Made by a program: the position numbers and the translations under genes
In this document: positions 1 through 52,797 of the stretch, one piece after another
Layout: each line of letters begins with the position of its first letter
Numbering within the stretch: position 1 is the first letter of the stretch
DNA from: Carcharhinus amblyrhynchos
Lineage: Eukaryota
Assembly (NCBI GenBank): GCA_965287045.1
Contig: OZ336879.1
Coordinates: 56,048,001 to 56,112,000 of the forward strand
DNA length: 64,000 nt
Direction of reading: 5' to 3'
The notes under the pieces: model-generated
Database searches by the model: none
What the model saw: the letters and a program-made list of their open reading frames with translations, nothing else
What the model was told of the DNA's origin: nothing

Positions 1-902
1 CTAGAAACGCTTAAGCTTTTACCCTCTGGGCAAAAGAGGTTGACTCACCGCTAGAAAGGCTATTATCTAAGGGCCATGTTGAGTTGTGTAGGTGAGCATG
101 ATCTTCCAAGCTTTCAAAAAGAAACTTTGAAACTTTCAAATATAGTGAATGACCTCTTTTGGAGTTCTGGTTAAACCAGTCTTTAATGTTGTGCAGGCCT
201 ACTTGCAGTTCATGGATATCCATGGTGAATAAGGTGTTGACACGAATGGTGCCAACCCCATTCACACTGCTGTTCTGATAATTATTTTCACTGACTATGT
301 TTGACCAGGGAAAAGGGAAGCATGAGGTGGTTTCCCACTGCCTTCCTCATGTGGGAAAGCAAACTCATTTCACAAATGATTCTCCTCTTGACATTGAACA
401 GCCATTGTTGTCGGAAGTTGGAACTCCTTCATCTTCACCACTATGGAATTCATTGGATTCACCTTTGGCCACTACTTGTAATCTGAACATGGGATCCTTC
501 CAGATATCACCAGTTGGGCCAGCTGAACTTGGGGCTTGCAAAGGTGTTCGAAATTAATTTTCCATAGCTGTTTAACGGGTAAATCATCAGCAAATGGTAA
601 ATGGTTGTTTTTCAGACTGGAGGATGGTAAATAATGGTCAAGGGTCAGCAGTAGGATCACTCTTTATATGGATATAAATTACTTGGCTACTAGAACACAA
701 TAAAACTTCAAATTTTGCCAGTGATGCCAAAGTTAAAAATATGTGAAACAATGAGGTTGATACCAAAAAACTGCCACAAGCGCATAAATATGGCAGAATG
801 GATAAACATGTAGAAGATGGAATTTAAACCAGAGAAAGATGAAGTAATACATTTTGGCAGAAGGACAAATGACGACAATTTAAGACTTAATTTTAGTTAT
901 TA

Positions 903-1197
903 ATTCTTTCACGGGTGTCATTTGTTGCCAGCCCCTAATTGAACTGAATGACTTGCTAGACAATTTCAGTAGGCCTGGGGTCATATGTAGGCAAAAAGAG
1001 GTAAGTGGTTGGAAGAGTTCAAGAACATTAGTGAATCAGATTTGTTTTCTTATGACAATCAATTATAGTTTCATAGTCACCAAGACTAACTTTCAATTCC
1101 AAATATTATCAATAGAATGTAAATTACACCAACTACCATGGTGGGATTTGAACCCCTACATCCAGGTCTCTGAATCATGAATCTAGTGACATTACCC
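903..1197 (-). mobile_element. Old tRNA-headed SINE, same family as 26566-26920 and 55357-55690
   Basis: Reverse complement shows a ggttcaaatcccaccatgg B-box-like head and the ctgattcactaatgttc body, matching the other copies. Confidence 0.55.
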
Positions 1198-1373
1198 TCT
1201 TTGCAGGAACAGAGATACATGGAGATTATGTGCCTAGGTCTTTGAAAGTGGCAGATTATAATGAGGGAGTGGTTCGCAAAACATATGGGATCTTGGGCTT
1301 TATAAATAGTTGTACTGAGTATAAAAACAGCAACGTTATGCTGTACCTCTGGTTAGACCACAATTAGAATATT

Positions 1374-1819
1374 GAGGGTGATTCTCCCAAAAAATTCATG
1401 TGAAAACTGGAATAAATCATACTAGTTTTTTCACCACTGCCTGACCTTCCGGTGGGGCCCAATTCCCATCCCTTCACTCCAGTGGAGTCAGACCGTTGGC
1501 TCCCTGCACGTGGGGAGCTATAGTAATCCCCGTTAGAGTGAAATATTCCCAGCTGGGGGGGGCGGGTAGAGGCTAGCAGGCCCAGAAATTTCAGTCCCAG
1601 GCCTGCTAATGCCATTTAAAACAGATGCAGATGAAGGGTTATATGTATAATACAGCTCCACATCTATTTCTGGTGTGGAGCTGACATGCCAGAAATCCGG
1701 TGCTGGGAGCCACACTCCAGGCCAGACATCCAGCACGGATCGTGCTAATCCAGTGCCACTAAACCTGCTGGCCTGCTGTACTGATTTTTTTAGCGCAGCA
1801 GAAAGGGAGAGTTGCCCCC
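1374..1819. mobile_element. Non-autonomous DNA transposon (MITE), PIF/Harbinger-like
   Basis: Imperfect 15-bp TIRs gagggtgattctccc / gggagagttgccccc; 3-bp TSD att (1371-1373, 1820-1822); removal restores the CR1 sequence. Confidence 0.65.
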
Positions 1820-2254
1820 ATTATGTCCAGTTCTTTAATATGGGTTTGAAGGTCCTCGACGGTTCCAGGCTTGATGGATTTTAGACACAAGGCTAGATTG
1901 GAGAATATGGGGTTGTTCTTCTTGAAAAATGGATGTTGTTTGGTGACCTGATTGAGGTGCACAAGATTATGGCAGCTTTAGATATTTTAAGAAAATAAAA
2001 GCTATTCTGACTAGTTGATGATACAAGGACTAGGACGTATAGATCTGAGGTTTCATTGAAGAGATGTAAGGGGGAATGTGAGAAAGAACTTCATTATGCA
2101 AAATAAGTGAATATACCTAAAAGTCATTGTCTATGAGGGTGGTGGAAGCTGAGACAATCAATGATTTTTGAAAAGAAATTATGTGGACACTTGAAGGATG
2201 TAAAATTGCAGGACTATGGGGATAAAGTGGGGAAATTGGAATGACAGAATTACA

Positions 2255-2566
2255 GGGTAGTGCGGTGGCACAGAGGTTAGCACTGCTGCCTCACAGCGCC
2301 AAGGATCCGGGTTCGATTCCCGGCTTGGGTCACTGTCTGTGTGGAGTCTGCACATTCTTCCCATGTCTGCGTAGGTTTCCTCCAGGTGCTCCAGTTTCCC
2401 ACACTCCAAAGATGTGCGGGTTAGGTGCATTAACCGTGCTAAATCCTTAGTATCAGGAGGACTAACGAGGGTAAATGCATGGGGTTATGCAGATAGGACC
2501 TGGATAGGATTATGGTCAGTGCAGACTCGACAGGCTGTATGGCCTCCTTCTGCACTGTTGGATTAT
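2255..2566 (+). mobile_element. HE1/V-SINE-type tRNA-derived SINE with CR1-type tail
   Basis: A/B boxes (tggcacagaggttag, gggttcgattccc), V-domain-like core gtgtggagtctgcacattcttcccatgtctgcgtaggtttcctcc, tail ggcctccttctgcactg. Confidence 0.9.
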
Positions 2567-2685
2567 AATAAAACCAGGATATGTCAATGGTCTCTTTCTG
2601 TGCAGTAATGGTTCAATGGACACAAGTTTTGTTTCAAGCTCAGAACGCCGATGTGAATTTTTGTTTCTAACCCCATAGGATGCCT

Positions 2686-2770
2686 GGGTGGCCCAGTGGT
2701 TTGCACTGCTGCCTCACCATGCCAGGGACCTGGGCTGCTGATGCATGTGAGAGAGAGAGAGAGAGAGAGA
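2686..2770 (+). repeat. SINE head fragment followed by (GA)n microsatellite
   Basis: gggtggcccagtggtttgcactgctgcctcac...gggacctggg; (GA)n at 2749-2770. Confidence 0.7.
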
Positions 2771-3776
2771 CCGATAGAGTGGATCTTTAATGATGGAGTC
2801 ACCTTCCAAAGAGACGATAGAAATGATTCAATTTAAAAAGGCCAAAGCTGGTAGGCCATCATCTGGATGGTCACTGGCTGCAGATCCTTCTCCCATAAAC
2901 AAAATAGCTCAGGGGTGGTTGCGTGCTGACAACCTGGCTGCTTTTTCCATATCAACTCACAGTCATCTCCACCATGGGTCCTGCCTTCATTGGGATCAAA
3001 ATTCTGCTCTACAACTATGTGTCCATTATCTTCTGAAACAATTCCAGCCCAATGTTTCATTGGTGTAATGAGGCAAATTTTTGAGGCTGGGAGTAAGGCT
3101 GTTATTGGAAAAAGACTGGGGGAAGTCTAGCATTACATTTGCTGTTTTCCTTGCTACATCTGACATAGTTCTTGCTGTCTCTGACAAATGCAGAATAAAT
3201 AGTCCTCTTCCTTTCACTGTTTTTATCTGAAGTGTACAAAAAGACAAAGAAGAAAGCAAAATAAAACAGAAAGGAAAAAGTCTATAATGCACATTCCATT
3301 ACTTTTATAATCCAAGGGTGATGACTTTAATAGCTCTGCCATGGAATTTTATTTAGTTTTACCTTTTGACTTCTTGTTGCATCAGTTAGTTATTCATTGA
3401 AACATAAAAGCATTTAAAATAACATGTTTACCCCGGTTCAGCGTTGGATGCTATAAAGTCACATTTAAACGTACAAGCACAATTGTATCGTTTGTATTAG
3501 TGAGATTACTCATTGTGCTTAGAATTAATAAGTTGCCACTAAAGAGTTCAAGGTTGTCACAAATCACAATTCAACCTGAAGTTGTTTTTATCCCTCTTTC
3601 CTTTAAGTTAGAGTCAAACCTTATGGGGGCAATTATCCCATCCCATTGTGCTAATTTTCTAGCGCAACAGGGTGGGAGAATCTTGAGGCTGGGCATGTGT
3701 GGGATCCGTGCATGGGTTCCTGCCGCATCCACGTTTTCCAGCGCCAGATTTCCAGTGTCGTCAGATCTGCACTGGA

Positions 3777-4081
3777 TTTTCTTTTTATTCCAATTCAATC
3801 CAATCAAATCCAATTTAGAGTCTCAACAAGTTGAGACATTCCCGATCCAAGCTGACAAGACAGGGCTCTCACCTCCTGTCTTGGGCTTGATCTACATGAT
3901 CCAAGCTGATTGGAGTAAGCATAGCTCCTCCTCCAAGGCTTGATCTCATTTGCATCTTTGCCAAAAGTCCGTGATGCCGCTTTAAAAAATTACTTCAAAT
4001 GAAGCTGAAATGTCACTTAATGACTTCAATCAAGCACAGCATGTTGATACTACACTTGATCTTAGCCAAAAGGCCGAGAAG
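3777..4081 (-). mobile_element. U2 snRNA-headed retroposon (SINEU-like) with poly(A) tail and TSD
   Basis: U2 nt 5-40 at the 5' end; AATAAA plus A-rich tail at the 3' end; flanking direct repeat agatctgcactgga (3763-3776) / agatctgtgctgga (4080-4093). Confidence 0.8.
4046..4081 (-). pseudogene. RNU2: U2 snRNA 5' fragment (nt 5-40, includes branch-point recognition GUAGUA)
   Basis: Minus strand reads CTTCTCGGCCTTTTGGCTAAGATCAAGTGTAGTATC, identical to the conserved vertebrate U2 5' sequence as recalled; the rest of U2 is absent. Confidence 0.92.
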
Positions 4082-4506
4082 ATCTGTGCTGGAAACCATC
4101 AGGAAGACAGGTAAGTCATTTGAATCTTTATTTAAATGTACTTTCAATGTAATTAGCGGGTCTGGGACTGAATTTCCTGGACCCATTAGCATCTCCCACC
4201 CTGCCAAAGTGTTTCACTCCAGCAGGGTTTACAGTAGCTCCCCACTTTTGGGGAACTAGCAGCCTGTCCCTGCTGAAGTGAAGGTAGAGGATTGAGCGCT
4301 GGTGGGAGGGAGAAGGGGGGGGTGCGGTGGTATCTCTTGAGCGTGAGCAGCCTGGCAGTGCCAGCCTGTGCCTGTTGGCAGTGCCCATGGGGTTAAGTGT
4401 CCACACCCAGGGGCCCTCTTGGCTCTGGGGTCCAGCGGTTGGGGCCTGATGGGGCAGGGCCTAGAGGCAATCGATGGGTGGCCTGGCTGCCACTCTGCTT
4501 TGGGAT

Positions 4507-6010: not shown

Positions 6011-9000
6011 AATGTATATGGGGACAGCAAAAGATGGGAATGAGGCTGGCAGCATTGTTAGGTATGTGAGGATAAGGTAGAGTCTCTGGATGTTAGTCAT
6101 GAGTTCTGAATGCTGAAGAGTGCTGCTGGATGAGTAATGGTGGTGTGGTGTATTGAACAGTGTGTGTGTTCTTGATGGTGCAGTGGGTTAAATATGTCAG
6201 TCACAGGCCAACTGTGTGAGGTTAATTGTATATTTTGTAGGACTGCTATCAGGTCCTTGTGTCCAGACACTGGGAATTGTTCTCCTTACTCACCTGCTCC
6301 CAATCCCTTCTGAGCGTGAGCCTCCAAGCTGCCTGGAAACCTGGTGTCTCTCTTGCTATTCACTTTCAGTTGAAGGTCTCCAGAGCTATATCTTTGACTC
6401 CAAATCTCCCTCTCTATCCTGTTCTATTTTCCATCCCTACAATTGAATAAATAACAGTCAGCATCACCATTGTGTGATTCAGTGTAGTCTCCCTTTTGGA
6501 GGAATAAACTTCTCTGAAGAACAGAAGATTGGTTTTACCACATTTTAACAGTAGAATATGAGCTTTGCTGGCTCGGCCAACATTTATTACTCAACCCTAA
6601 TTGCACTTGTTCAGTCCCCTGCCGAACATATAGACAGACAGCAGCAGAGAAACTGCTCAACCCGAGGCTACAACCATGGAAATGAGGTGCCACCCACTTC
6701 CACTGGAATCAGTGTGGGCAGGTCATAAATCAAAACCTCACACCTGATTATCAGTGCCATCCAACTTTTGGTCCTTGTTCTCCATATCAATTCACTGACT
6801 GATCTGGACATATTTGGGGAGGTAATTAATTGATCTAGGTTCGAGAGTGTGATAACTGAAATCTATTCAAAGTAAATTCCTCTCTGGTCCCCTCACCATA
6901 TCATCATGCATTTGCAGGAAGACATTCAAAACTTCGAAACTGTAAAGTATTGATCACATAGGAATGATTTTAAATTGACTAGACCCATTTCTATCTGATG
7001 TTCTGTACTGCCACTTGTAAATCTCTTCAACTCCAGACTCACCCAATTCAGACAACAGGAGCTTTGGTCCCCTGAGCTTTGGAAATGTGCTGCTACAACT
7101 TGAACTGCTGTGGTTTTGCCTCTCAAGTCATTTGCTGTCCTGTTTGACTGCTACATTGATGTTGACCTATTAGACCTTTTCTCTAATATTTCAACATCTG
7201 TTGTATACTATAAAAGCTATCAGCTTCCGTGAGATTTTTTGGAATTTGTTTTGTTTATAACCATTAAATCTTCTTGACTAAAGACATTTCTGGTTGTCCT
7301 GCAATGGATTTTTATCTGAAAAAATTGTATCTGCTGCATAAAATATGTGCTGCTAAAGCCTGAACCATGTGCTCCCACAGAATGTGAACAAAACCTTGAT
7401 TAAAAAGTGGATACCTATAAACACAATGCATGCAGAAACATGTCAAAAATGGATTTTAATTGTGTATTATCAAGTATTATAATTATTTAGGCTATATTAA
7501 TAAGCCATAATAATAAAATATCATGAAGCCAAAATACATTGGATAGAATATTACACCTAAAGATTGGGTGCATGCTATCCTGGAGGCTCATGTCATCGCA
7601 CAAGAAGGCATTGGGCGTGCATCCCCACGCTATCGCCCACTTAGTAGCATTTTGGTCAGTGGGCATACACGAGAGTTGGAAACATGACAACCAATAATGA
7701 AGAAGCCAATTTAAATGATTTAAACACCAATTGACTAATACTTCATGTTGCCCTTCTGCCATTAGGGTTGGCAGCAGGTGGGCTGAATGGCAGAGCGGCC
7801 TTTACATTTAGGCTGCAACCTCGATCGAGGGCAGGATGAAAGGTCGGGGTTCAAATAAAATTGACAGATATGTTTGGGGATTGTAGTTTGTGTATGATTG
7901 TGCTGCCTAGATACTGGTGGCATGTTTTTTCCGTTGATATTAATTTTAAACAGGTCAGCAGCTCTCTGAGACAGCTCCACAGTGACCCTCCCTCTGAGGG
8001 AGCACATTGGGAGTACCAACCCACACCGCCCTTTTTCTCTGCACATGCTCTCTTCCTACTCTCCCTGACAGCACACTGCCTTTCACAGCATGTGTTTCAT
8101 GATGGCTGCTCAGCCAGTTTGAAATCACGCTCCTGGGTTAATTGCGCTGCTTTGGGGCCTATTTAATGTGTGCGTGCTCAATGGGTGAAATGATATTCAG
8201 GCCATAAGGGCATCCATACATTGACAATTACATTTTGAATGTCCCCACTACTAACCCACCAGGATCAGCACAAAAATATCCTGCAACAGCCTTTGGCAAT
8301 GTGATGACGTAACTGAGACCTATTCTTCCTAACCCATATCACAGGCCGATGCGAGTTGTTCCAGTTCTGACCTTTCCCATGTGTTTGCTAACTGGTTTGA
8401 AAATGATTCCTTATGCCATCATTTCAGTTGTGAATAAGTACATTTACATTTAAGGTCAAACATGGATCATTGAGCAATGCCGCTCATCACATTGTGCCAA
8501 ATAGGTACTGTTCCTCTCTGCCTCTTGTCACTCAGCCAATATTCGAAACAGACCCATAATTTTCCTTCAAATTCATGAACTAATCTTTCACTGAGAATTC
8601 CTCGAGGGACTTTATGGAATCCCTCAATAAACTCTATGCGAATAACATTTATAGAAATTTCCTCTGTCCATTGCTTTTGTCACTACTCTGCCACTACTTT
8701 GTCACTAAAATTGATCAGTTTTGCTGGGTGTCACCTGTTCTTTCCAAATCCACACTAAATCTCATCAGCTGAAATTTTCAATAAGTCCATTCTTGGCTGT
8801 AGATTCCAGTGTCACAGACAGTATTTATTTGTTCTGCTGCCTGTGATCAATATGTTTTGTTCAGAAAGAGGTGTATATTTTCTTACCCTTGGAGTGGATA
8901 TCCAATTAAATTATTCAGTAGCAAACTTTGATGAGTTTAAAAGAAAGAACATGATATAGTTTCGCCTTGAAGGCCACAGAAGATGTGTTTATAACATAGA

Positions 9001-9662
9001 CAAACAGATTGATTATCAAATGTAAATCATTCTAATACATCTCTGGCAAGCAGCAAGAGTGGGAAAGTTGCCCTGTCAGACATCTGCAGAGGTAATGGAA
9101 AACCACTGCAGCGCCTTGCCAAGCATTACCATGGATCAATGTCCTGTCGGGGCATAGTATCTGAAGAAAAAGAGAGACAGAGAGAGAGAGAAATTTATTC
9201 TCATACATTTACCCCAAATTAAACTCAACGTCACACACACTCAGTCTCACTCCTGCACTCAGACACACCAAGACTGGATAAAAATAAAGGTCATGCACTT
9301 CTATAGGTTCCAATTGTCTCAGTCTCTGATGATCTTTGGAGTCCCATGTGGCAGGCCTGTGGTCTTTTAAATGGATTTGATGATTTGAAATTTGAGTCAC
9401 AGTCTTGTAAGGTGAAAGTTTCACAGCAGATTGCGAGATTTCTTTCAGCGGCACTTCCACATGGTTGGTTTATAGGTGAACATTAAATTGGAACAGATAC
9501 ATACTCCAGCTGTCTGATGCTCTGCAGCTTGTGTCTGAGTCTGGTTCACAGAATGGCTGAATTGATGCTTCTAATGACTTTGGTAGAACAGCCTATGCAC
9601 AGCTCCAAACTGATCTTTTAAACAAACCATGAAAACCTATCTGTCTCCATGTAGTTTTTCAT

Positions 9663-9968
9663 AAAGTTTAAATTATTAGTCACAAGTAGGCTTACATTAA
9701 CACTGTAATGAAGTTACTGTGAAAATCCCCTCATCACCACACTCCAGCACCTGTTCGGGTACACTGAGGGAGAATTTAGCATGGCCAATGCACCTAATCA
9801 GCACATCTTTTGGACTGTGGGAGGAAACCAGAGCACTCGGAGGAAACCCACGCAGACACAGGGTGTACGTGCAAACTCCACACAGACAGTGACCCAAGCC
9901 GGGAATCAAATCCAGATCCCTGGTGCTGTGAGGCAGCAGTGCTAACCACTCATGCTTCTGTGCCACCC
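9663..9968 (-). mobile_element. V-SINE with alternative (tail-B) 3' end
   Basis: HE1-like head and core; 3' end ggggattttcacagtaacttcatt...aagcctacttgtgactaataa. Confidence 0.9.
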
Positions 9969-17500: not shown

Positions 17501-17852
17501 GTTCTCAACTAAGATGTAATACAAGGAGATATATCGTATGAAATTGCTATTTCATCAGAAACCAGAAGAATGATTTTTGCCCTTTCCTGATCTGGTTAGG
17601 AAATGAATATTTTCCCCACCTTCTTGATACACTACAATTGTTCGGGCAATTTGCAAAACTGACATGACTATTAATCTTAAAACAAAAAAAAATCACATTT
17701 ATTTGTGGAAAACTATGGAACTGTTTTTAGAGTCCTTGGACGTGCACTTAAACTCAGGAGTCACACAAGTATTATTTGGCATAGTTACCTTTTTATGGCA
17801 ATTCAATGAGAATTGCCAGGGTTGAGAAATGAAATTCTTCTCTTATGGTTAA

Positions 17853-18146
17853 AATTTATTAATTAGTGTCTCAAGTAGGCTTACAGTAATACTGCAATGA
17901 AGTTACTATGAAAATCCATTAGTTGCCACATTCCGCCACATACTGATGGAGGATTTAGCATGGCCAATTCACCTAATCAGCATGTCATTTGGATTGTGGG
18001 AGGAAACCAGGGTACCCAGAGGAAATCCACACAGACATGGGGAGAACGTGCGGACTATGCACAGACAGTGACCCAACAAGGAATTGAACCCTGGGTCCCT
18101 AGTGCTGTGAGGCAGCAGTGCTAACCATTGTGCCAGTGTGCCACCT
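17853..18146 (-). mobile_element. V-SINE, tail-B subfamily
   Basis: caagtaggcttacagtaatactgcaatgaagttact...gtgctgtgaggcagcagtgctaacc. Confidence 0.88.
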
Positions 18147-18714: not shown

Positions 18715-20339
18715 AATATCTTTATACTGATGCTCCTCCATCCACATTATTTCTGTTGACATCCCTTTGTGCAAATTTTCAGTCTTGTATCTTTGTATTC
18801 TCCCCACCTTCAGTCCACTGTTGGCAGCAGAGCCACTGAGCTGCCTCAAACCCAAGACCAGTTTAAATGGTAGCAACAGAAATCCAATTACCTGATCCCA
18901 AAATGGAGAGCAAACTCACTGCAGCACTCATCAGGACCCAAGGCTGCACCATGATTGGTCAATGAATTAGCCAGTGCCAGGTTGGCCACCTTATCAAAAA
19001 TGTTCACTCATCTGCTGGACTTGGCAACCAGTTGGAGGAGTAGCAGCCACAGCAATATCACCAAGATGGTGTGCACTGCCATGGCTAAAACTGGAGGAAG
19101 AGAACGCATCAATGTCCTGCACCCTTGCAACCAATTAGGGTGCTGGAATGAGAGCAGGGTAGGAAAGTGATGAAGGAAGGCAGTAATGTTGCAGAAGGGT
19201 GGCCAGTCCATCGATCAAAGAGTGCCAGAAAATGAGCAACCCCCAGTCCCCCCCACCTCCACTGCTCAGCATCCACTGGGAGGCTGCCATTGTTTACTAG
19301 GTAATCTCCCCAAGGGACAGAGGGCCCCGTTGCTGTTAGTTAATTAAAGCAAAGGCAGAAGGACGCTGAAGAGGGCTCTGGGTGGGAAGACTGCCCATCA
19401 CCTTCACCACTGCTGGAAAGATGGCATGGCGGCTGATAGCCATGTCACTACACTTCCCACCAATCTTCCTGCATCATTTTTACAAACTCTCCCACCTTCT
19501 GTCCCATCCCCAAAGGCATGATAAAATTCAGCTCCTATTTTCTGGAATTCTCTCCTTAAGTCATTTTGCCTCTTAATTTCTCTCTCCAATTTTAAGAGCT
19601 CTCTCACAAATGTTTTTAACCAAACGCTCAGTCACTTTGACTTTCATAGTTGAACATTCAGTTTTAAGTCACTTTTGCCTGTGTTCTTTCTTCCCCTGTG
19701 GCAATGTTTTGGGCTATTTCCTTTGTAAAGTGTGTTTTATAAATGTGACTGTTGTTTATTTTTATTGACCTGTAATAATAAAGAGAATTCACAGTTGCGT
19801 AAAGTTGAAATCCTATTGTAACGATTAGCATCTGCGTCAGCTGTTTAGTGCTGAAGAGCTGCTGGCCATCTGATTGTTCAGCAGCTCTTGGAAGCGGGAC
19901 ACCCTCCCTCGAGGGCGGAAAGCCATGAGCTTGCACCATTAACTGACAACTATAAAATCTGATACTCTGATTAAATCACTCTCTCAGCAGAATAGTTACC
20001 TGGGAACAATTGGAAAAATAAGAAACTGATTTTATAATGTTATAAATGTACCAATTGCTTATAAAGGATTTGGAAAATAAGTTGCAGGTTCATTCATTTA
20101 GACAAGGCACATGAGTTAGATAAAGATCAAAAGCTTGAAGACATTAGCTGTAGTGCTGTGTGTGCTGTGTTCTGCTTATAGGACAAAGTGAAACTGAGTT
20201 TGAATCACATAACACATTTCTTTTCCAGTATTGGAAAGATGCTATTTTAAAGGCAACAGCAACAAAATCAAAGACTCTGGAATGGTTTTGATTCTTTTAA
20301 CAGAATATTTACCCAGGAAAAGTGGGTAACTCCTGGGTA

Positions 20340-21455: not shown

Positions 21456-22077
21456 AAATGAAACAAGTACATGCAGTGGAATCCCAATACCGTACATGCA
21501 GTAGATAAAGTTAATCAACTATGTTTACAATCACTGCCTGTCTGTAGCAGCAATATAAATGGGCTGTGGGAACGTGGAAGTATCAAGCGCCTCCTAGCAT
21601 TTGTCAATATTCAAACAACTGATGTGGGAATTCAACTTAAATATTATAAAATTAAATTCCTGTTGAATTTTAACATTGTAACTTTGCCCCACTTCTGGCT
21701 GTGTTTACAGCTCAAAACCATGCATAAGAGCTACCAATTCAGCATTCGTACTTAAACTGATTGTTTGGGAAATGGGAATACATGTTAGTTGGGGACTGAG
21801 CAGTGAGTATCTTTATGTACTCATATTGTCAGATTGAACTAGAGCCTCGGGAGAAATTAACACAATGAATAGAATCTTCCAGTCCCACAAGCAATGCGAA
21901 GTGTGGTGGGTGACAAAACATCAACAAATTAAGTTCCCTCCAGCGGGAAATTAGAACCTTCAGTTTTACAATTGTAAATCAATCATGTGCACCTGAGTAG
22001 CTTCACTTCTCCCACAACTTTGAGGTCAGTGGATGCTGCTTTCATCTTCTTGGGGACCACTCATAACTTCATTCTTA

Positions 22078-22400
22078 GGGTAGCAAGGTGGCACAATAGT
22101 TAGAACTGCTGCTTCATAGCACCAGGGACCTGGATTCGATTCCAGCCTTGAGTGACAGTCTGTGTGGAATTTGCACATTCTTCCCATGTCTCTATGCTCC
22201 AATTTCCTTCCACAGCCCAAAGATGTGCAGGTTAGGTGGACTGGCCATGCTAAATTGTCCCTTAGTGTCCCAAGAGGGATGAGTGGGGTAAATAGGTGGG
22301 GTTATAGGAATAGGGCCTGGGTAAGATGCTCTGTCGGAAAGTAGGTACAGATTTGATGGGCTGAATGGTTTTCATCTGCACTGCAGAGATTCTATGATTC
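22078..22400 (+). mobile_element. HE1/V-SINE with CR1-type tail
   Basis: Head ggtggcacaatagttagaactgctgc; tail tctgcactgcagagattctatgattc. Confidence 0.88.
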
Positions 22401-28790: not shown

Positions 28791-31037
28791 CGGGGTGGGA
28801 GACATTAAAAAAAATGGACAGGCTTCCCTCTGGAGTCTTGCAAACCCTGACTTGAACACAATTTTATGGTGGGGCTGGCAGAACTTCAGATGGGAAGCCC
28901 ACCCATGCCTCTAAAAAGGTCTTTCAGTGGCCACTTAATGACCTCGTAAGATCCTTTCCACCCCCCAGCCCCAATTTTCAGACTGGCAGACGCCTGATGT
29001 CTAAGGGTGGGAAACAGAAAAAAGCTCCTGCCCTCAATCTCATGCAGGAAGGTGGCGGGCTGGGGTGAATTTACAGCAGGGTCTTCTGCTGGTGCCTGCC
29101 ATGGTAGGCTGGAAAACCTGCCAGTGGCTGGTGTGAACCTTGTTTGCATCCCATTAAAATGAAGCAGATGAAGACTGACCCGCTCATGCCAGGTTCTCTA
29201 TGATGCCAGTGGGAAAACAAGCCCGCATGAAACATGTTCAGAACAATGTGACATGCAGATGTTGGGTTTTCTCTGAACAATGCCTGGGGCTGCCACTGGA
29301 ATTTAGGATGGAGGTTATCCGTAACCCTGGAACCTGGAACACCACAACAGTAGGTTGGGGAGCACCTGCAGGTGGGCCTTCCAGATTAGGGCCAGCACTC
29401 TCTGACCTCACCCACAGCTGGGATTCTCCTTTCCCGTTGCAGTGAACAGAGATTTGACTAAGCACCAAATTCTCCATTGTCACCCATAGAGGTGGCAGAT
29501 AGGAACAGCTGAAGAATTCTGGCTTGGGTGTCCTGGAAGGGAAGGTCCATCTTCCAGCCTCAGGTGTTCTTGGAGATCCCTCTTTGTTCTTAGGAGGTCC
29601 ATCTTCCATCTCAGAGTGCTCCCAGGGACCTTTTTTTCATTTTCAAGATGTCTACCTTTTTTCTTAAATAGGGGGTCAGTGGTGTTAGACTCCTCTCCAA
29701 TATGGCACCCAGATATGATGGCGGCGGACTGCACAACATCCAGACCTGTCCCACCACTGCATGGAGTGTAAACACTCGGGTACATAATTAATAGTTTTGG
29801 GACCTGAAGATTTGATGTTTTTTCCTACTGGCCTCTGCAGCGGGAAGAACTCCGCATTCATGCCGTGGCACAAAATGTGAGAATTCTGTTATGAAAAGTC
29901 CCCACTGTTCCAGATTTATTAATTGAACTTAAATTGGGATTTGAACCTATATCCCTTAAGCCTTTGGATTACTAATCCTGTGACATTAAAACTGCACTCC
30001 TGTCCTCCCTTTCACATTAGAAAAATCCCTATTTACACAAAGACTAATGGAGGTGAAGTAGCAACAGGTCCTACCAAGCCTTTAATTAAAATAAACAGGA
30101 TCGCGATACAATTAAAGCACCAAAATGTACTGATTAGCTTTCATGATGTGTAAATTTAATGATTGAATTTCCTGGAATTGTATAACATTATATTAGATTT
30201 AGCTTGTTGATTCCCATAAGGACACGTTTCCCCACTGTCCTATAATCATTAGTAGCTCTGACAATAATTCGTAGTCCAGCAGCAGCTTAGACAGACAAGT
30301 AAGCATGCTGTGTCAGAGGCCAGCTTCAGAAGCTATTAGTATGTGCGTGTTTGCCATAATAAGTGGATGTTAAAGGTACTTGTACTGGAAAGAGTAGGGG
30401 GAAATTGTGAATACCTACCAGCTTTTACGTTTTGAATTATTTGCATTTTAACACTTAAAATGTAATAACATTTTTAGATGGGGCATTGGGCAAATATATT
30501 ATCTTTTCACTCACCTCACTCAGTCTTGTACAAGTAGAATAAATTGCAGCCTTCATTTGGTTCTTTGGGTGTGTTTATTGTTATAAAATTGTAGCTTTTG
30601 TTGTTGATTGGTCAGACAGTTGCGCTTGTGCATTCGGCTTACACTGTGTTCGGCTCACATTGTGCATGTGAGGTTTCTCCCAACGCTGGCATCATGAGCG
30701 TTCACCCACAGCCAGTGTTAGTACAGGTCGCACCTGCATGCAGTGACTTATTCACTCAGCTGCTTCTCCAGCTCTGGTATCAGTTTGCCAGTCACTGTGC
30801 TGCCATTTCCCAATGCCAGCAACTCACAGAGCCACCCCACACCTATCCATTGCCAATCTACTCCCCCTGTCGTCTCTTGCTCACCCTTTTTCCCACATCC
30901 TCACGCACCTGTCTTCTGCACTGTGTGCCATGCTGTGCTCTGCCTTCCCACTGTTGTCAGCCATGGTCTATCAGACTGTATCTTGATTGTCCTCTGGACT
31001 TCAACACCTCTGTCTCTAACCTGGCCGACTCTGGATT

Positions 31038-31336
31038 AAAGTTTACTTATTAGTCACAAATAGGCTTACATTAACACTGCAATGAAGTTACTGTGAAAAT
31101 CCCTTACTCGCCACACTCCGGCGCCTGTTCGGGTATACTGAGAGAGAATTTAGCATGCCCAATGCATCCAATCAGCACGTCTTTTGGACTGGGGAGGAAA
31201 CTGGAACATCTGGAAGAAACCCACATTGACACGTGGAGAATATGCAAACTCCACACAGTGACCCAAGGTGGGAATCAAACTCGGGTCCCTGGCACTCTGA
31301 GGCAGCAGTGCTAACCACTGTGCCACCATGTCACCC
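31038..31336 (-). mobile_element. V-SINE, tail-B subfamily
   Basis: Full head, core and tail, collinear with 9663-9968. Confidence 0.9.
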
Positions 31337-31389
31337 AAATCATGGGCTTTGAATTAAAAATCCAATTTCATGCAGCAGGCCTAGACTAC

Positions 31390-32451
31390 TGTTGGGATAT
31401 CTTTCAAAACTATGGGTATTTTTAAATAAAAAAAGACATTGCATTATCACTTATATGCTGACTTGGAGATGTTTTTAAAGAAGGTTATAAATTCACCTTG
31501 GACTGGGAGTAAGCCTGTTTTCTCCTGAGAAATCACCTGACCTGCATAGCACTTGAGGATGATTTGTTTGTTTGTATTGAACTGCAATCACTTTAATTCA
31601 AAACCGAAAAGCAAAGGCTCTGAGTTACTGGAGATCACCTGGCAGAAGCAGCCTTTAAGTTTTGAATCTTTTGGTTATTCTCCTCTATGGCAAAGTCTGG
31701 TTGGTGAGAGCTTCCAACTGTCCACCAGGACTAGCGGCTTATCTTGATACAAGGGAACTCCGGATCAACAGAATCAAGACTCTGCAAATTTTATCCTTTA
31801 TTTTATTATCCTCTCAAACACATCTCTACAGTGAGACTCTATCTTCTTGTCCTGTTTCCCTGTGTGTTTCTGTCTGTCTGTGTGTGTCCCAGCAAGAGTT
31901 TTTTAGATAGATAGTTATGCTTCCAAACTACAATTTTGTGTTAATCAGTACTTGCAACTTGTTGAAAATGAATTTTGTTTTATAATAAACTAATAATTTT
32001 GTTCTTTACAGAAAGAAGCCCGGTTAAAGTCTCTTTTATTCTGTTTACCAGAACCATTCTGGTGAGAAATTAAACTTTTAAGATAATGGTAATGCCTGTT
32101 TAGGACTGCTTAGCATTGCTGCCTCACAGTGCCAGGGACCCTGTTTTAATTCCCAGCTTGAATGATTGTGTGGAGTTTGTGCATTCTCCCTGTGTCTGTG
32201 TGGGTTTCCTCTGAGTGCTCTGGTTTCCTCTCACAGTTCAAAGATGTGCGGGTTAGGTGGATTGGTCATGCTAAATTGCCCCTTAGTGTCAAGGGATATC
32301 TAGGGTAAATGCATGGGGTTATGGGGCTAGGGCCTGAATGAGATTATGGTCGGTGCAGACCCAATGGACCGAATGGCCTTCTTCTGCACTGTGGGGTTCT
32401 ATGATTCTAGTGGGGCTAGATAGTAATGTTACAACCATCCTGGTTGTAACA
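31390..32451 (+). mobile_element. Possible solo LTR with SINE insertion
   Basis: Starts TGTTGG, ends GTAACA, with internal AATAAA (31984) and GT-rich tract; no clean TSD. Confidence 0.35.
32107..32409 (+). mobile_element. HE1/V-SINE with CR1-type tail
   Basis: tagcattgctgcctcacagtgccagggacc...ggccttcttctgcactgtggggttctatgattcta. Confidence 0.88.
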
Positions 32452-37410: not shown

Positions 37411-39216
37411 TTACGGCCAGGGTGTTTATGATTGTGGGGTTTCTCTTCCTGCCACCCAAAGTATTGGCGGGGACCACATCCCCACCAACACTGTCCCACA
37501 GTGATTTCACACTCCAGTGAGCATTTATTGGCTGGAGACAGGACTTCCGCTCTTCACTCAGGAGGCAGTCCTCCCTCAGAGAGCTGATGTTCAGTCTGAT
37601 TATCTGGCAGCTCTTTAGTCTGAACAGCACCACAAGTTGCAGTAGGCAGGATTCTAATCAGTCCTCACAGCCTAAGTTTCGGGATTCCAGGTACAGGTAA
37701 GTTTTGGAGTCGGAGTGAGGATAGTAGAGGAGGCAGAGGTGGATTGGGGTGTTGGTGGAGAGGCTGAGGTGGCAGAAACATTACTGGACCTGAGGGACAA
37801 GGCACACTATATTAAAAGTGGGCTGCTAATGGAGGAAGTGCCACATCCCTCCTTTCTGCCCAAGGCCAGAATCTGATTTATGAATGGATCTCCTCCATAC
37901 ATGGGAACTCCACCCATCAGCCTGAACATTGTGGCTTGGTAAGAAGCAGCCCTTAAATGGTCAGTTATTGGCCACTTAAGGCCCTCAAATGGGGCAAGGA
38001 CAGGCAAGCCAGCCAAGGCCTCACCCACCCTAGCATTAAATTGCAGAAAGGTCGGGGCACTTGGGAACCAAATGGGAAGGCCATCCAGGGAACTGTATGC
38101 CCACCCCTCTCCACTCAAACAAAACCTGCCAGTGGGGAAATGTAAAATTCTGTCCTGCACTGTGAATTACTAACTGTGTATAATATTATCTCTTCTGTCT
38201 CATCTCTTTGTTCCTTTAAAATGCATAGATGCAACCCATTTGGATCAGGCCTTTTACCCACTCTGAATTTGTTTATTTAACTTTGAATACACTTATTTCA
38301 TTGATCATCTCACCACTCCAAGTCATGTTTACCTGTGCCATCTCCGTGTTAAATCCAGAAGTGAAATCATGATTTAATATTGCTGCCATCTGTCTGTTAT
38401 TAACTGTAGTATTATCCTATCTATTCCTCAATAGTTCTATTCCCACCACAGTTCATCTTTTTTATTGATCAATCTGTATTGCTTTATATTTCTTTGCAAC
38501 TTAATTTCATAGTTTCTCTTTGCCTTTCCAGCTTATTTCACTGCTCTCTTTATCTCTTCATATCCTCTCATATCTTGCCACGCTGCTTTCTATGTACTCA
38601 ATGTCTGCCTTTTGCCTTGCTCTCAATTGTTTCCTTATGTCATCATTCATCCATTAATCTCATTAGTGTTTCAGTTGTCTTTTCTTTTTGTGGAATATAT
38701 TTTCCCTACACTCTTGATAACAATTTAAGTATTTTGCATTGATTTTCTGCATCACTGTTTGCTGATATTGTTCCCTGTTTTCTTTGCACAAGTCCTATTC
38801 CATACCCCATGAAATCAACTTTCTCATTATTATCTTTGCTTTCATGAGCTTAGATCCTTCTCTTTTATCATCTTCAAGCATATTGCATTATGGTCACTAT
38901 TGCTTAGATATATTTTATGTACTTTTATTTCTCTTGACTGTCCTCATTCATTTTACATTACTAGGTTCAGTAACAACTTCACTTAGCTTTTTACTGATTG
39001 GGTTAGAAAGGATACAAGAATATCTGTTTGGCTATGGGACAAGGGCGAAAGGATGCAGATTTAAAGGTATGGGCAAGACACACAGTGGAAATATGATTAA
39101 GAAGATATTTTTGTGTGCAGCAAGGAGTAATGGCCCACAACTCACTGCCCATGCAGCTAGTTTGAAATTATCCCAAAAAGAAATTCAGTCAGTACTGGAG
39201 GGAAATAAATTCAATA

Positions 39217-39503: not shown

Positions 39504-39811
39504 TGATCACTTAAAGAGCAGTCACATGATTTTGATAGTGATGTCATTCGAGTGTTTCAGAGGCTCCTGCTTTTAGTTTAAGTTTGTACTCTGAACAGAC
39601 AAGAGCACCTGGAGTAAATCTGTTGTTGTTAGTTTGAATCTTCATGAGCAAGCCACATCTTTCTCTTCTTGTGTAAAGCCTACAATCCTGAACGTGGTTA
39701 GGATATTACAGGCATAGGCTGGGATGCCAATCAGCCACCCACTCCATGGAGGTTGGTGATCAATCTAAATCATTCAGGTTTCAATTAGGCATGATGTTGT
39801 ATGATGTAGAG

Positions 39812-40124
39812 TGGCACAGTAGCACAGTGGTTAGCACTGCTGCCTCATAGTGCCAGGGAACCGGGTTCAATTCCTGACTTGGAGTTTGCACATTCTCCCC
39901 GTGTCCATGTGGAGTTTGCACATTCTCCCTGTGTCTGCATGGATTTCCTCTGGGTGCTCCGTTTTCCTCCCATTATCCAAAGACGTGGTGGTTAGGTGGA
40001 TTGGCTATGGTAAACTCTCCCTCCATCTACCCGAACAGGTGCCCGAGTAAGGTAGCCGGGGATTTTCACAGTAACTTCACTGAAGCCTTAATATAAGCCT
40101 ACTTGTGACTAATAAATAAACTTT
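39812..40124 (+). mobile_element. V-SINE, tail-B subfamily, with a 30-bp internal tandem duplication
   Basis: tggagtttgcacattctccc(c/t)gtgtc repeated at 39880 and 39910; tail ttttcacagta...cctacttgtgactaataaataaacttt. Confidence 0.9.
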
Positions 40125-40233
40125 AATTTTATTTTTGGGGAGCAGTCTGCTATTTTGCAGGTGGTGGAGCAGCCCCCTACTTCATGGGGAGGTCATCAGC
40201 TTAATAGAAACAGCCTTCCTGTGGCACTCCAAG

Positions 40234-48998: not shown

Positions 48999-49055
48999 AG
49001 TAAAATGTCTGACAACACCAGGTTTAAGTCCAACCGATTTATTTGATAGTACACA

Positions 49056-49089
49056 CACTAGCTTTCAGGGTTAGTCCCTTTGTCAGGTG
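49056..49089 (-). ncRNA. Minimal type I hammerhead ribozyme motif (core G8 mutated)
   Basis: cac-CTGACAA-AGGG-actaa-CCCT-GAAA-GCTA-gtg. Confidence 0.7.
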
Positions 49090-49288
49090 AATGGAGAGTT
49101 ATGGCCTCAGACAGAGCATATAAAGCACAGACAGTTTACAGATTACTGATTAGAATGCGAATCTTTACACCTAACCTGCTGTTCCAGTCCTGAAGTGGCT
49201 GACAATGTGAGTGAAAGAAGCACTGATGTGTATTGTCTCCAGACAGTACAGTAAGTGAGGTTTTGCAAACCCAGGCAAGTCACGGGGG

Positions 49289-51334
49289 TTACAGATAGTG
49301 CGACATGAACCCGAGATCCTTGTTGAGACCGTCCTCATGTGTGCAGAACTTGGCTATCAGTCTCTGCTCAGTGACTCTGCGCAGTCGTGTATCGTGAAGG
49401 CCGCCTTGGAGAACGCTTACCCGAAGGTCAGAGGCTGAACGCCCATGACCACTGAAGTGTTCGCCAACAGGAAGGGAACAGTCTTGCCTGGTGATTGTCG
49501 AGAGATGTTCATTCATCCATTATTGTAGCGTCTGCATGGTCTCCCCAACGTACCATGCTTCGGGACATCGTTTCTTGCAACGTATGAGGTAGACAACGTT
49601 GGCCGAGTTGCAAGAGTATTTACCGTGTACCTGGTGGATGGTATTCTCACGTGTGATGATGGTATCCGTGTCGATGATCCGGCATGTCTTGCAGAGGTTG
49701 CTGTGGCAGGGTTGTGTGGTATTGTGGTCACTGTTCTTCTGAAGGCTGGGTAGTTTGCTGCAAACAATGGTCTGTTTGAGGTTGTGTGGTTGTCTGAAGG
49801 CAAGAAGTGGGGGTGTGGGGATGGCCCTGGCGAGATGTTCGTCTTCATCAATGATATGTTGAAGACTCCAGAGAAGATGTCGTAGCTTCTCCGCTCTCGG
49901 GAAGTACTGGACGACGAAGGGTACTCTGTCCACCATGTCCCGTGTTTGTCTTCTGAGGAGATCGGTGCAGTTTTTTGCTGTGGCGCATCGGAACTGTCAA
50001 TCTATGAGTCGAGCGCCATATCCTGTTGTTATGAGGGTATCTTTCAGCGTCTGGAGGTGTCTGTCATGATCTTCCTCATCTGAGCAAATCCTGTGTATAC
50101 GGAGGGCTTGTCCATAGGGGATGGCTTCTTTAACATGTTTAGGGTGGAAGCTGGAGAAGTGGAGCATTGTGAGATTGTCTGTGGGCTTGCAGTACAGTGA
50201 GGTGCTGAGGTGACCGTCCTTAATGGAGATGTGTGTGTCCAAGAATGCAACTGATTCTGGAGAATTGTCCATGGTGAGTCTGATGGTGGGGTGGAACTTG
50301 TTGATGTCATCATATAGTTGTTTCAGTGATTGTTCACCATGAGGCCAAAGGAAGAAAATGTCATCGATGTATCTAGTGTATAGCATCGGTTGAAGATTCT
50401 GTGCGGTGAAGAAGTCTTGTTCGAACCTGTGCATGAAGATGTTGGCATATTGAGGTGTGAATTTGGTCCCCATGGCTGTTCCGTGTGTCTGGATGAAAAA
50501 CTGGTTGTTGAAGGTGAAGACATTGTGGTCCAGGATAAAGCGGATGAGTTGTAAAATTGCATCTGGAAACTGGCAGTTGTCGGCATTGAATACTGAGGCA
50601 GTCGCAGCAATGCCATCGTCGTGGGGGATGTTGGTGTAGAGCGCTGAGACATCCATTGTGATGAGGAGTGTCCCTGGTTCAACTGTTCCATGTGTGCTGA
50701 GTTTCTGTAGGAAGTCCGTAGTGTCGCTACAAAAGCTGGGGGTTCTTTGTACAGTGGGTTTCAGGATGCCCTCGACGTAGTCGGAAAGGTTCTCACACAG
50801 AGTCCCATTGTCTGATCTGATGGGACGGCCGGGTGTGTTTGCCTTGTGTATCTTTGGGAGGCAGTAGAGATCTCCAACGCGGGGAGTACGTGGAATGAGA
50901 GCATGGAGGGTGCTCTGAAGGTCCGGATCAAAGGTCTTGATCAGAGTGTTGAGTTGACGAGTGTGTTCTTTGGTCAGATCTGTGGGTAATTGTCTGTAGT
51001 GTTCCTCATTGTTTAGTTGTCGGTACACTTCTTTACAGTAATCCGTTCTGTTCAGCATGATGATGGCCCCTCCTTTGTCTGCTGGTTTGATGACAATGTT
51101 GCGATTGGTCTTGAGAGCGTGAATGGCGTTGCATTGTGCTTGGGTGATGTTCGGGGCTGTCTTGTGAGTGCGGTTGATGAATCTGGTGTTAACGTACCTC
51201 CTGATGGTTTGGGTGTACAAGTCCAGTCGAGGGCAGCGGCCTTCCGGAGGAGTCCAGTTGGATTCCTTCCTCTTAGGTTGCTGCACTGCGGATCTCTCTG
51301 TTGGCTGTTCTGGTTCATTGGCTGTCTCATTGAC
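49289..51334 (-). pseudogene. Penelope RT + GIY-YIG endonuclease ORF, 5'-truncated, two in-frame stops
   Basis: IKPADKG, LPKIHK, MDVSALYTNIP, GTAMG, RYIDDIF; C..LCKTC linker; NVVYLIRC..C...YVGET; ORFs 49997-51358, 49520-49936 and 49289-49516 are in one frame, separated by TGA and TAA. Confidence 0.92.
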
Positions 51335-52459
51335 TTCTTCACCGCACAGAATCTTCAACCGATGCTATACACTAGATACATCGATGACATTTTCTTCCTT
51401 TGGCCTCATGGTGAACAATCACTGAAACAACTATATGATGACATCAACAAGTTCCACCCCACCATCAGACTCACCATGGACTATTCCCCAGAATCAGTTG
51501 CATTCTTGGACACACGCATCTCCATTAAGGACGGTCACCTCAGCACCTCACTGTACCGCAAGCCCACAGACAATCTCACAATGCTCCACTTCTCCAGCTT
51601 CCACCCTAAACACGTTAAAGAAGCCATCCCCTGTGGACAAGCCCTCCGTATACACAGGATTTGCTCAGATGAGGAAGATCATGACAGACATCTCCAGACA
51701 CTGAAAGATACCCTCATAACAACAGGATATGGCGCTCGACTCATAGATTGACGGTTCCGATGTGCCACAGCGAAAAACCGCACCGATCTCCTCAGAAGAC
51801 AAACACGGGACATGGTGGACAGAGTACCCTTCGTCGTCCCGTACTTCCCGGGAGCGGAGAAGCTACGACATCTTCTCCGGAGTCTTCAACATATCATTGA
51901 TGAAGACGAACATCTCGCCAGGGCCATCCCCACACCCCCACTTCTTGCTTTCAGACAACCACACAACCTCAAACAGACCATTGTTCGCAGCAAACTACCC
52001 AGTCTTCAGGAGAACAGTGACCACAATACCACACAACCCTGCCACAGCAACCTCTGCAAGACATGCCGGATCATCGACATGGATACAATCATCACACGTG
52101 AGAATACCATCCACCAGGTACACGGTAAATACTCTTGCAACTCGGCCAACGTTGTCTACCTGATACGTTGCAAGAAAGGATGTTCCGAAGCATGGTACAT
52201 TGGGGAGACCATGCAGAAGCTACGACAACGGATGAATGAACGTCGCTCGACAATCACCAGGCAAGACTGTTCCCTTCCTGTTGGCGAACACTTCAGTGGT
52301 CATGGGCGTTCAGCCTCTGACCTTCGGGTAAGCGTTCTCCAAGGCGGCCTTCACGATACACGACTGCGCAGAGTCACTGAGCAGAGACTGATAGCCAAGT
52401 TCTGCACACATGAGGATGGTCTCAACAAGGATCTTGGGTTCATGTCGCACTATCTGTAA
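51332..52459 (+). pseudogene. Second copy of the Penelope ORF C-terminal half (RT YIDD, thumb, GIY-YIG), one in-frame TGA
   Basis: YTRYIDDIFFLW...GARLID*RFRC...VVYLIRCKKGCSEAWYIGET...VGEHFSGHG...GLNKDLG; the two ORFs are in frame across TGA 51749-51751. Confidence 0.92.
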
Positions 52460-52670
52460 CCCCCGTGACTTGCCTGGGTTTGCAAAACCTCACTTACTGT
52501 ACTGTCTGGAGACAATACACATCTCTTTAACCCGTGATCAGTGCTCCTTCCACTCACATTGTCAGCCACTTTAAGACTTGAACGGCAGGTTAGGTGTAAA
52601 GATTCGCATTCTAATCAGTAATCTGTAAACTGTGCTTTATATGCTCTGTCTGAGGCCAGAACTCTCCATT

Positions 52671-52704
52671 CACCTGACGAAGGGACTAACCCTGAAAGCT
52701 AGAG
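52671..52704 (+). ncRNA. Minimal type I hammerhead ribozyme motif (core intact)
   Basis: cac-CTGACGA-AGGG-actaa-CCCT-GAAA-GCTA-gag; AATAAA at 52717-52722. Confidence 0.8.
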
Positions 52705-52797
52705 TGTGTACTATCAAATAAATTGGTTGGACTTAAACCTGGTGTTGTCAGACTTTTTACTGTGTTTACCCCAGTCCAACGCCAGCATATCTACATC

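Follow-up and report, generated by a model that had tools for sequence, protein, structure and literature searches.

A candidate U2-headed, SINEU-like retroposon in a shark genome carries duplicated hairpin modules with paired changes

The window analyzed here, a 64,000-nt stretch of shark DNA, contains an insertion with a U2 snRNA head, a 14-nt target site duplication, an A-rich end and two duplicated hairpin modules that differ by paired changes; a paralogous copy of the interrupted repeat retains the empty site. We take the modules to be the structured body of a U2-headed (SINEU-like) retroposon, short and non-autonomous, that was inserted by target-primed reverse transcription, with the hairpins selected for docking, and assign this reading a probability of roughly 0.5.

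The insertion is 303 nt long, lies at 4079–3777 on the minus strand and holds both modules between 14-nt direct repeats. The 5′ target copy (4080–4093, minus), whose last 2 bases are also U2 nt 5–6, and the 3′ copy (3763–3776, minus) are identical at 12 of 14 positions, and the two mismatches would fit a single decayed CpG. The upstream part of the host repeat (4094–4324, minus) aligns to 1432–1645 of the plus strand (68% identity, E 2e-20), and the downstream part (3618–3762, minus), which has an inverted-repeat-like terminus, aligns to 1669–1826 plus with a score of 79 against a shuffle maximum of 47.5. Because both flanks align, in the right order, with a single repeat (1432–1826 plus) in which the target occurs once (1669–1682), the paralog carries an empty site. 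The spacing of the aligned blocks is 23 nt in both the insertion-bearing and the empty copy. The paralog extends over 1369–1826 (plus) and has imperfect inverted ends; those of the host repeat are flanked by TTA/TAA, from which we take it to be a non-autonomous Harbinger-like transposon, a family label that we assume. The arrangement shows retroposition into a DNA-transposon-like repeat, and we are highly confident that the insertion was retroposed. The one copy seen sits inside a host repeat with inverted-repeat-like ends.

The insertion starts with U2 nt 5–40 (4046–4081, minus), in which 36 of 36 letters equal the Rfam U2 consensus, and U2 identity ends at nt 40. The Rfam U2 match (50.7 bits, E 4e-07) covers 3887–4085 with model positions 1–192 aligned; the head carries the score, and without it the body matched nothing in Rfam at E up to 10. 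In the predicted fold, U2 nt 26–39 pair with the first 14 bases of the body, forming a head hairpin ("module 0"; 4029–4060, minus; centroid structure) of 14 contiguous pairs with no mismatch. Counted by eye, 10 of these pairs are Watson–Crick and 4 are G–U (chance about 3e-5 over 20 registers); read on the sense strand, the hairpin has 4 G–U versus no A–C pairs, a 1-in-16 outcome by chance. The predicted 14-bp stem buries U2 nt 33–38, the branch-point recognition bases. According to the accessible part of PMC13019295, the branch helix comprises U2 nt 33–45 and the base of the BSL is G25–C45. At the base of the head hairpin, the 5′ arm is that of both modules and the 3′ arm differs by one G. 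The basal helix shared by the three hairpins (5′ AGAUCAAG, 3′ GCUUG(G)AU) has a U–G pair in the head hairpin that is C–G in the modules, and the head hairpin, module 1 and module 2 look like one family.

Between the head hairpin and module 1 lie two small, weakly supported hairpins (3992–4028, minus; pair probabilities 0.55–0.84), followed by a T6 run that aligns to the U2 Sm site (3982–3991, minus; U2-equivalent position 95–104). This Sm-like run lacks the G after the U-run, and 18 such runs occur on the minus strand of the window (about 0.002 per 7-nt slot). Directly preceding module 1, the U2 5′ segment occurs once more in degenerate form (3954–3974, minus; 18 of 21 positions identical to the head, chance about 3e-5). 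The 5′ part as a whole is of ordinary stability, with a folding z-score of −1.14 that 28 of 200 shuffles matched.

Module 1 (3898–3946) and module 2 (3844–3893), 49 and 50 nt long, were found together with the ensuing palindrome on the minus strand, where the original prediction had placed them, and the proposed identity of AGATCAAG at the module start with U2 nt 24–31 agrees with the Rfam consensus. The target duplication, the empty site, the second U2 piece and the head hairpin, which were not part of the original prediction, identify the element and hint at the origin of the modules. Module 1 consists of an 8-bp basal helix with a bulged G, a C/UCA internal loop and a 6-bp upper stem that can be extended to 8 of 9 pairs; module 2 has the same basal helix and internal loop below a 9-bp upper stem. 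The two are collinear duplicates with one gap in their alignment. Identity is complete over the first 10 bases and the last 12, which take in the unpaired C, the UCA and the bulged G. The terminal loops differ. The predicted identity of basal stem and internal loop thus extends to 22 of 22 bases, but the stem is not flawless, having one bulged G. The upper stems, described earlier as completely different and perfectly paired in both modules, differ only in part and are not both perfect: among nine pairs, five are changed on both sides, one is changed on one side, two are unchanged and one is broken in module 1.

The changes number 0 of 22 in the basal helix and internal loop versus 8 of 12 in the upper stem (Fisher P 2.7e-5). 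The observed covariation is reached by 13 of 500 shuffles, and slid registers yield 0–1 double-changed pairs. Six pairs are present in both minimum-energy folds, and the probability that they would stay paired by independent substitution is 3e-4, or 3e-3 if G–U is allowed; the covariation is based on two sequences and on a structure derived from those same two sequences. The collinear alignment strengthens the covariation reading, and the paired changes are suggestive of a selected structure within the element, without being proof. The claim of a selected RNA structure is thus favored by the paired changes and by a fold that beats shuffles, but is tempered by the number of sequences (n = 2), their origin in one element and the lack of an Rfam match; we consider selection on the RNA of the modules probable. 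Since the head is intact, the copy would be young and the differences between the modules would predate it, having arisen in the master lineage.

On the minus strand, the predicted fold of 3820–3945 has three distinct hairpins and an energy of −47.7 kcal/mol. Comparison with shuffled sequence had been set as one refuting test, and the stretch beats its shuffles (z −2.82, 1 of 200 as good). Taken alone, module 1 gives z −2.23 (4 of 200 shuffles as good) and module 2 gives z −3.45 (1 of 200). In the fold of the body, the mean pair probability of the module helices is 0.72–0.98, and cross-pairing between modules is at 0.0007. When minus-strand 126-nt tiles were scanned over window positions up to 54,471 of 64,000, 5 of 433 folded as well or better and 17 of 433 had z-scores of −2.8 or lower (12 shuffles each); the module stretch is in the top few percent of tiles and is not unique. 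Other strongly folding tiles in this noisy 12-shuffle scan are 7096–7221, 19822–19947, 30910–31035 and 37462–37587, and the host repeat is strongly self-complementary, with 4198–4323 and 1426–1677 among the tiles of lowest z-score. The whole body reaches only z −1.62, which 12 of 200 shuffles matched. The modules consist almost entirely of Watson–Crick pairs and are strand-symmetric, and the fold of the plus strand is as good as that of the minus strand or better (z −4.44, 0 of 200 shuffles), so energy alone cannot choose the strand.

The third palindrome (3820–3837, minus) is present as predicted, but it folds only as 7 bp with a CUUG loop and is commonplace, since perfect arms of at least 8 bases with a spacer of up to 4 start at 11 sites in the window. 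Its 5′ half resembles the 3′ arm of module 2 (11 of 12 positions with a 3-nt gap). The tail (3777–3815, minus) consists of ATTGG pentamers in degenerate form, then AATAAA and an A-rich end that is a short, interrupted A-run.

No second copy of the element is present in the window. A covariance model (R1) built from the two modules detected no further module in 1–4042 and 4084–64000 (63,959 bases), and its best other match, the modules' own reverse strands apart, had an E of 0.24. Among loci matching the module pattern (35 metagenome, 1 viral and 13 prokaryote), none resembles the body beyond the pattern; a metagenome locus with two pattern matches (L011, contig positions 942–1110) was rejected as a relative, being an unrelated tandem repeat that is otherwise dissimilar. 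Part or all of 3700–4150 occurs in 24 runs, drawn from 14 studies and covering 12 coded organisms, at shares of 0.19–0.71, for which an orthologous locus in related sharks looks the same as a family; one row with a share under 0.2 is left out of the run listing. No RNA sample is listed among the 24 runs, and 6 of the 24 rows are RNA by guess only. The shares of 0.38–0.45 in three organisms (A–C) exceed the 23% of words lying outside the body (P about 0.02) and probably include body words, although slow-evolving orthologs would give the same. We are inclined to regard the element as a member of a multi-copy family of which one copy was seen.

Translated searches with two of the six frames gave no match, and there was no Pfam or protein match in those two frames (Pfam covered 4 of 8 long frames). 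The stop-to-stop frame 3401–3943 was dismissed as a gene and attributed to chance. The window contains no partner LINE with the same tail. A scan for bacterial promoters and terminators was empty and is not relevant here.

The anatomy of the element was compared with that of SINEU. In the accessible part of PMC4494074 (Kojima 2015), SINEU elements are described as having heads from U1 or U2, U2 sequence that was added repeatedly, polyA and oligo-T, and as inserting into a non-autonomous DNA transposon. SINEU-1, -2 and -3 are reported from crocodilians only, none having been found outside them; the same text leaves SINEU transcription open and reports no LINE that shares the 3′ half of SINEU-1. 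The shark element likewise has a U2-derived head and repeated U2 pieces (36/36 and 18/21), is short (303 nt, against <500 bp) and non-coding with oligo-T inside and an A-rich 3′ end, and was inserted with a target duplication (12/14) into what looks like a non-autonomous DNA transposon. Four features that define SINEU are thus present: a U2 head, a short non-coding sequence, retroposition with duplication and repeated U2 pieces. The differences concern the host (shark versus crocodilian), the host repeat (Harbinger-like, by our assumed label, versus Mariner-N4), and the covarying-hairpin body and hairpin-locked head, neither of which is discussed in the accessible text of PMC4494074. Judged by anatomy, we call the shark element SINEU-like and do not assign it to SINEU-1/2/3. 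SINEU is mentioned only in passing in PMC5786205 and PMC5381603, and snRNA, SINEU and Tx1 appear nowhere in the accessible text of PMC5499810. The literature searched held no description from sharks; Repbase, Dfam and subscription papers were outside this scope, and the element may be catalogued as an unnamed repeat. Its occurrence in a shark would mean either a further origin of snRNA-headed retroposons or a much greater age for them.

Parts of the element also recall other systems. Keno (Tx1 clade) and Utopia are described in the accessible part of PMC4640811 as LINEs that target the U2 gene, inserting at nt 38/39. The U2 sequence of the element stops within 2 nt of that site, whereas the element has no ORF and no downstream U2, and its duplication consists of host-repeat DNA. 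Insertion of Keno or Utopia in a U2 gene was rejected because the 3′ flank is host repeat and not U2 nt 39 onward, with no U2 remainder 3′ of the element. Stringent LINE tails, as presented in the accessible part of PMC5135761, contain a stem-loop whose internal loop is asymmetric and, in UnaL2, includes an unpaired C; UnaL2 also has a pentamer repeat. Both modules resemble UnaL2/UnaSINE1 and ZfL2 in having an asymmetric internal loop with an unpaired C (C/UCA), followed by a pentamer repeat. In contrast to UnaL2, which has a conserved terminal loop (GGAUA), the modules have a constant base and a variable loop; moreover, there are two of them and they do not directly adjoin the pentamer repeat. 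The 5′ arm of the modules equals the 5′ arm of the U2 BSL from G25 onward, which is also the U6 helix Ia strand (PMC13019295, accessible part). Unlike in the BSL, this arm is fully paired in the element, and nt 33–38 are within the stem of the head hairpin and not presented in a loop.

If the element is a SINEU-like retroposon, its master RNA would have acquired U2 5′ pieces on more than one occasion. Modules 1 and 2 would then have come from duplication of a head hairpin seeded on U2 nt 24–31, an origin suggested by the basal helix common to all three. Under selection on the master RNA, the basal helix and the C/UCA loop may have been held to their sequence and the upper stem only to its shape, a pattern that would suggest a protein-binding site on a spacer helix. 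The likeliest reader of the hairpins would be an ORF2 protein supplied by an L1/Tx1-clade partner, or else a host factor that delivers the RNA to it. Because the T6 run would stop RNA polymerase III, transcription would be by RNA polymerase II from a promoter outside the element. Reverse transcription would be primed at the A-rich end, and the master RNA would be copied in trans by an L1/Tx1-clade enzyme. The 14-nt duplication and the AATAAA point to an L1/Tx1-type enzyme; an RTE-type enzyme would presumably fit them as well. Docking of ORF2, as opposed to another protein or a stability role, is a tentative assignment that we hold at somewhat under even odds. The terminal loops differ, whereas recognition in UnaL2 needs a conserved loop, and L1-clade enzymes are regarded, in the accessible parts of the sources, as relaxed, with polyA alone sufficient. 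The single copy, the plus-strand fold, the z-score of the whole body, the lack of a partner LINE in the window and the short A-tail also count against the preferred reading. As compact covarying units, the modules offer a concrete cis-signal for mutation.

We weighed several other explanations. The element could be a chimera, one-off or recurrent, of U2 with the 3′ UTR of a Tx1/Keno-type LINE, the modules being the LINE's own 3′ UTR signals; the reverse transcriptase might have switched from the LINE 3′ UTR to U2 snRNA, or a Keno-type element lying in a U2 gene might have been co-transcribed with U2 nt 1–38. Consistent with such a joining, the U2 sequence ends 2 nt past the Keno/Utopia junction (PMC4640811, accessible part), some Tx1-Mar LINEs carry U1/U2 heads (PMC4494074, accessible part) and the modules lie 65–170 nt from the 3′ end. 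However, the pairing of the first 14 body bases with the head and the second, older U2 piece inside the body argue for a long joint history of head and body, and there is neither a U2 remainder after the element nor a coding remnant; we regard a chimera as unlikely. Fold-back template switching at the DNA or cDNA level, which would have copied one arm onto the other and produced the changes without RNA selection, would fit the strand symmetry of the modules, the reuse of short words in their arms (CAAG/CTTG, AGAC/GTCT), the likeness of the third hairpin to an arm of module 2 and the frequency of palindromic repeats in the window. Left unexplained by it are the identity of the unpaired C, the UCA and the bulged G below paired bases that changed, and the G–U bias of the head hairpin; it appears improbable.

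Still less probable, in our estimation, is that the RNA is a disarmed mimic of the U2 snRNP, in which a polymerase II master at the Keno site, an Sm ring, a locked head and locked BSL-like docking helices would take the RNA through snRNP biogenesis to a Tx1 enzyme. The locked branch-point bases would then keep the RNA from disturbing splicing, and such a mimic, if real, would answer how snRNA-headed SINEs are transcribed and mobilized. We give the least credence to a retrocopy of a shark-specific U2-like small RNA, either a variant snRNA or one of the Sm class, that has a function in the host and the modules as its 3′ stem-loops. The Sm-like run does occupy the U2-equivalent position with hairpins on either side, and Rfam model positions 1–192 are aligned, but nothing in Rfam matches the body, the G is missing from the Sm-like site, the head hairpin buries the branch-point bases, and the AATAAA, pentamer tail and internal U2 duplication suit a retroposon. 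A functional U2 snRNA gene was rejected on the missing G and on the absence of any Rfam model matching the body at E up to 10. The hairpins are also not an iron-responsive element (no CAGUGN loop by inspection), a K-turn or C/D box (no tandem G–A by inspection), a 7SK GAUC motif (no flanking U bulges) or an HDV-like ribozyme (no Rfam match).

Several other features of the window were noted. A repeat of about 300 bp, which we take to be a common shark tRNA-derived SINE, is present in at least seven copies that are 70–84% alike (2254–2567, 9662–9967, 17850–18145, 22075–22400, 31035–31343, 32107–32409 and 39801–40127); ARAGORN detected no tRNA in the window. Around the start of the target at 4087–4097 (minus), 9 of 11 letters (GGTTCCCATCA) match the target duplication of SINEU-3 (PMC4494074, accessible part), a likeness observed by eye and post hoc that may be due to chance. 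From one end of the host repeat to the empty site is about 300 bp (1369–1682), and Tx1-9_AMi of crocodilians is described as inserting about 300 bp inside Harbinger elements (PMC4494074, accessible part); the agreement is possibly a lead for the partner LINE, or a coincidence. The longest frame of the window encodes a reverse transcriptase; its best named relatives, at 63–89% identity, belong to four genera of sharks, which marks the window as shark DNA. An inverted duplication (48999–50416 and 51332–52761; 95.5% identical, with a 915-nt spacer) surrounds a 454-aa reverse transcriptase frame, many relatives of which carry a GIY-YIG domain, so that 48999–52761 is probably a Penelope-like element.
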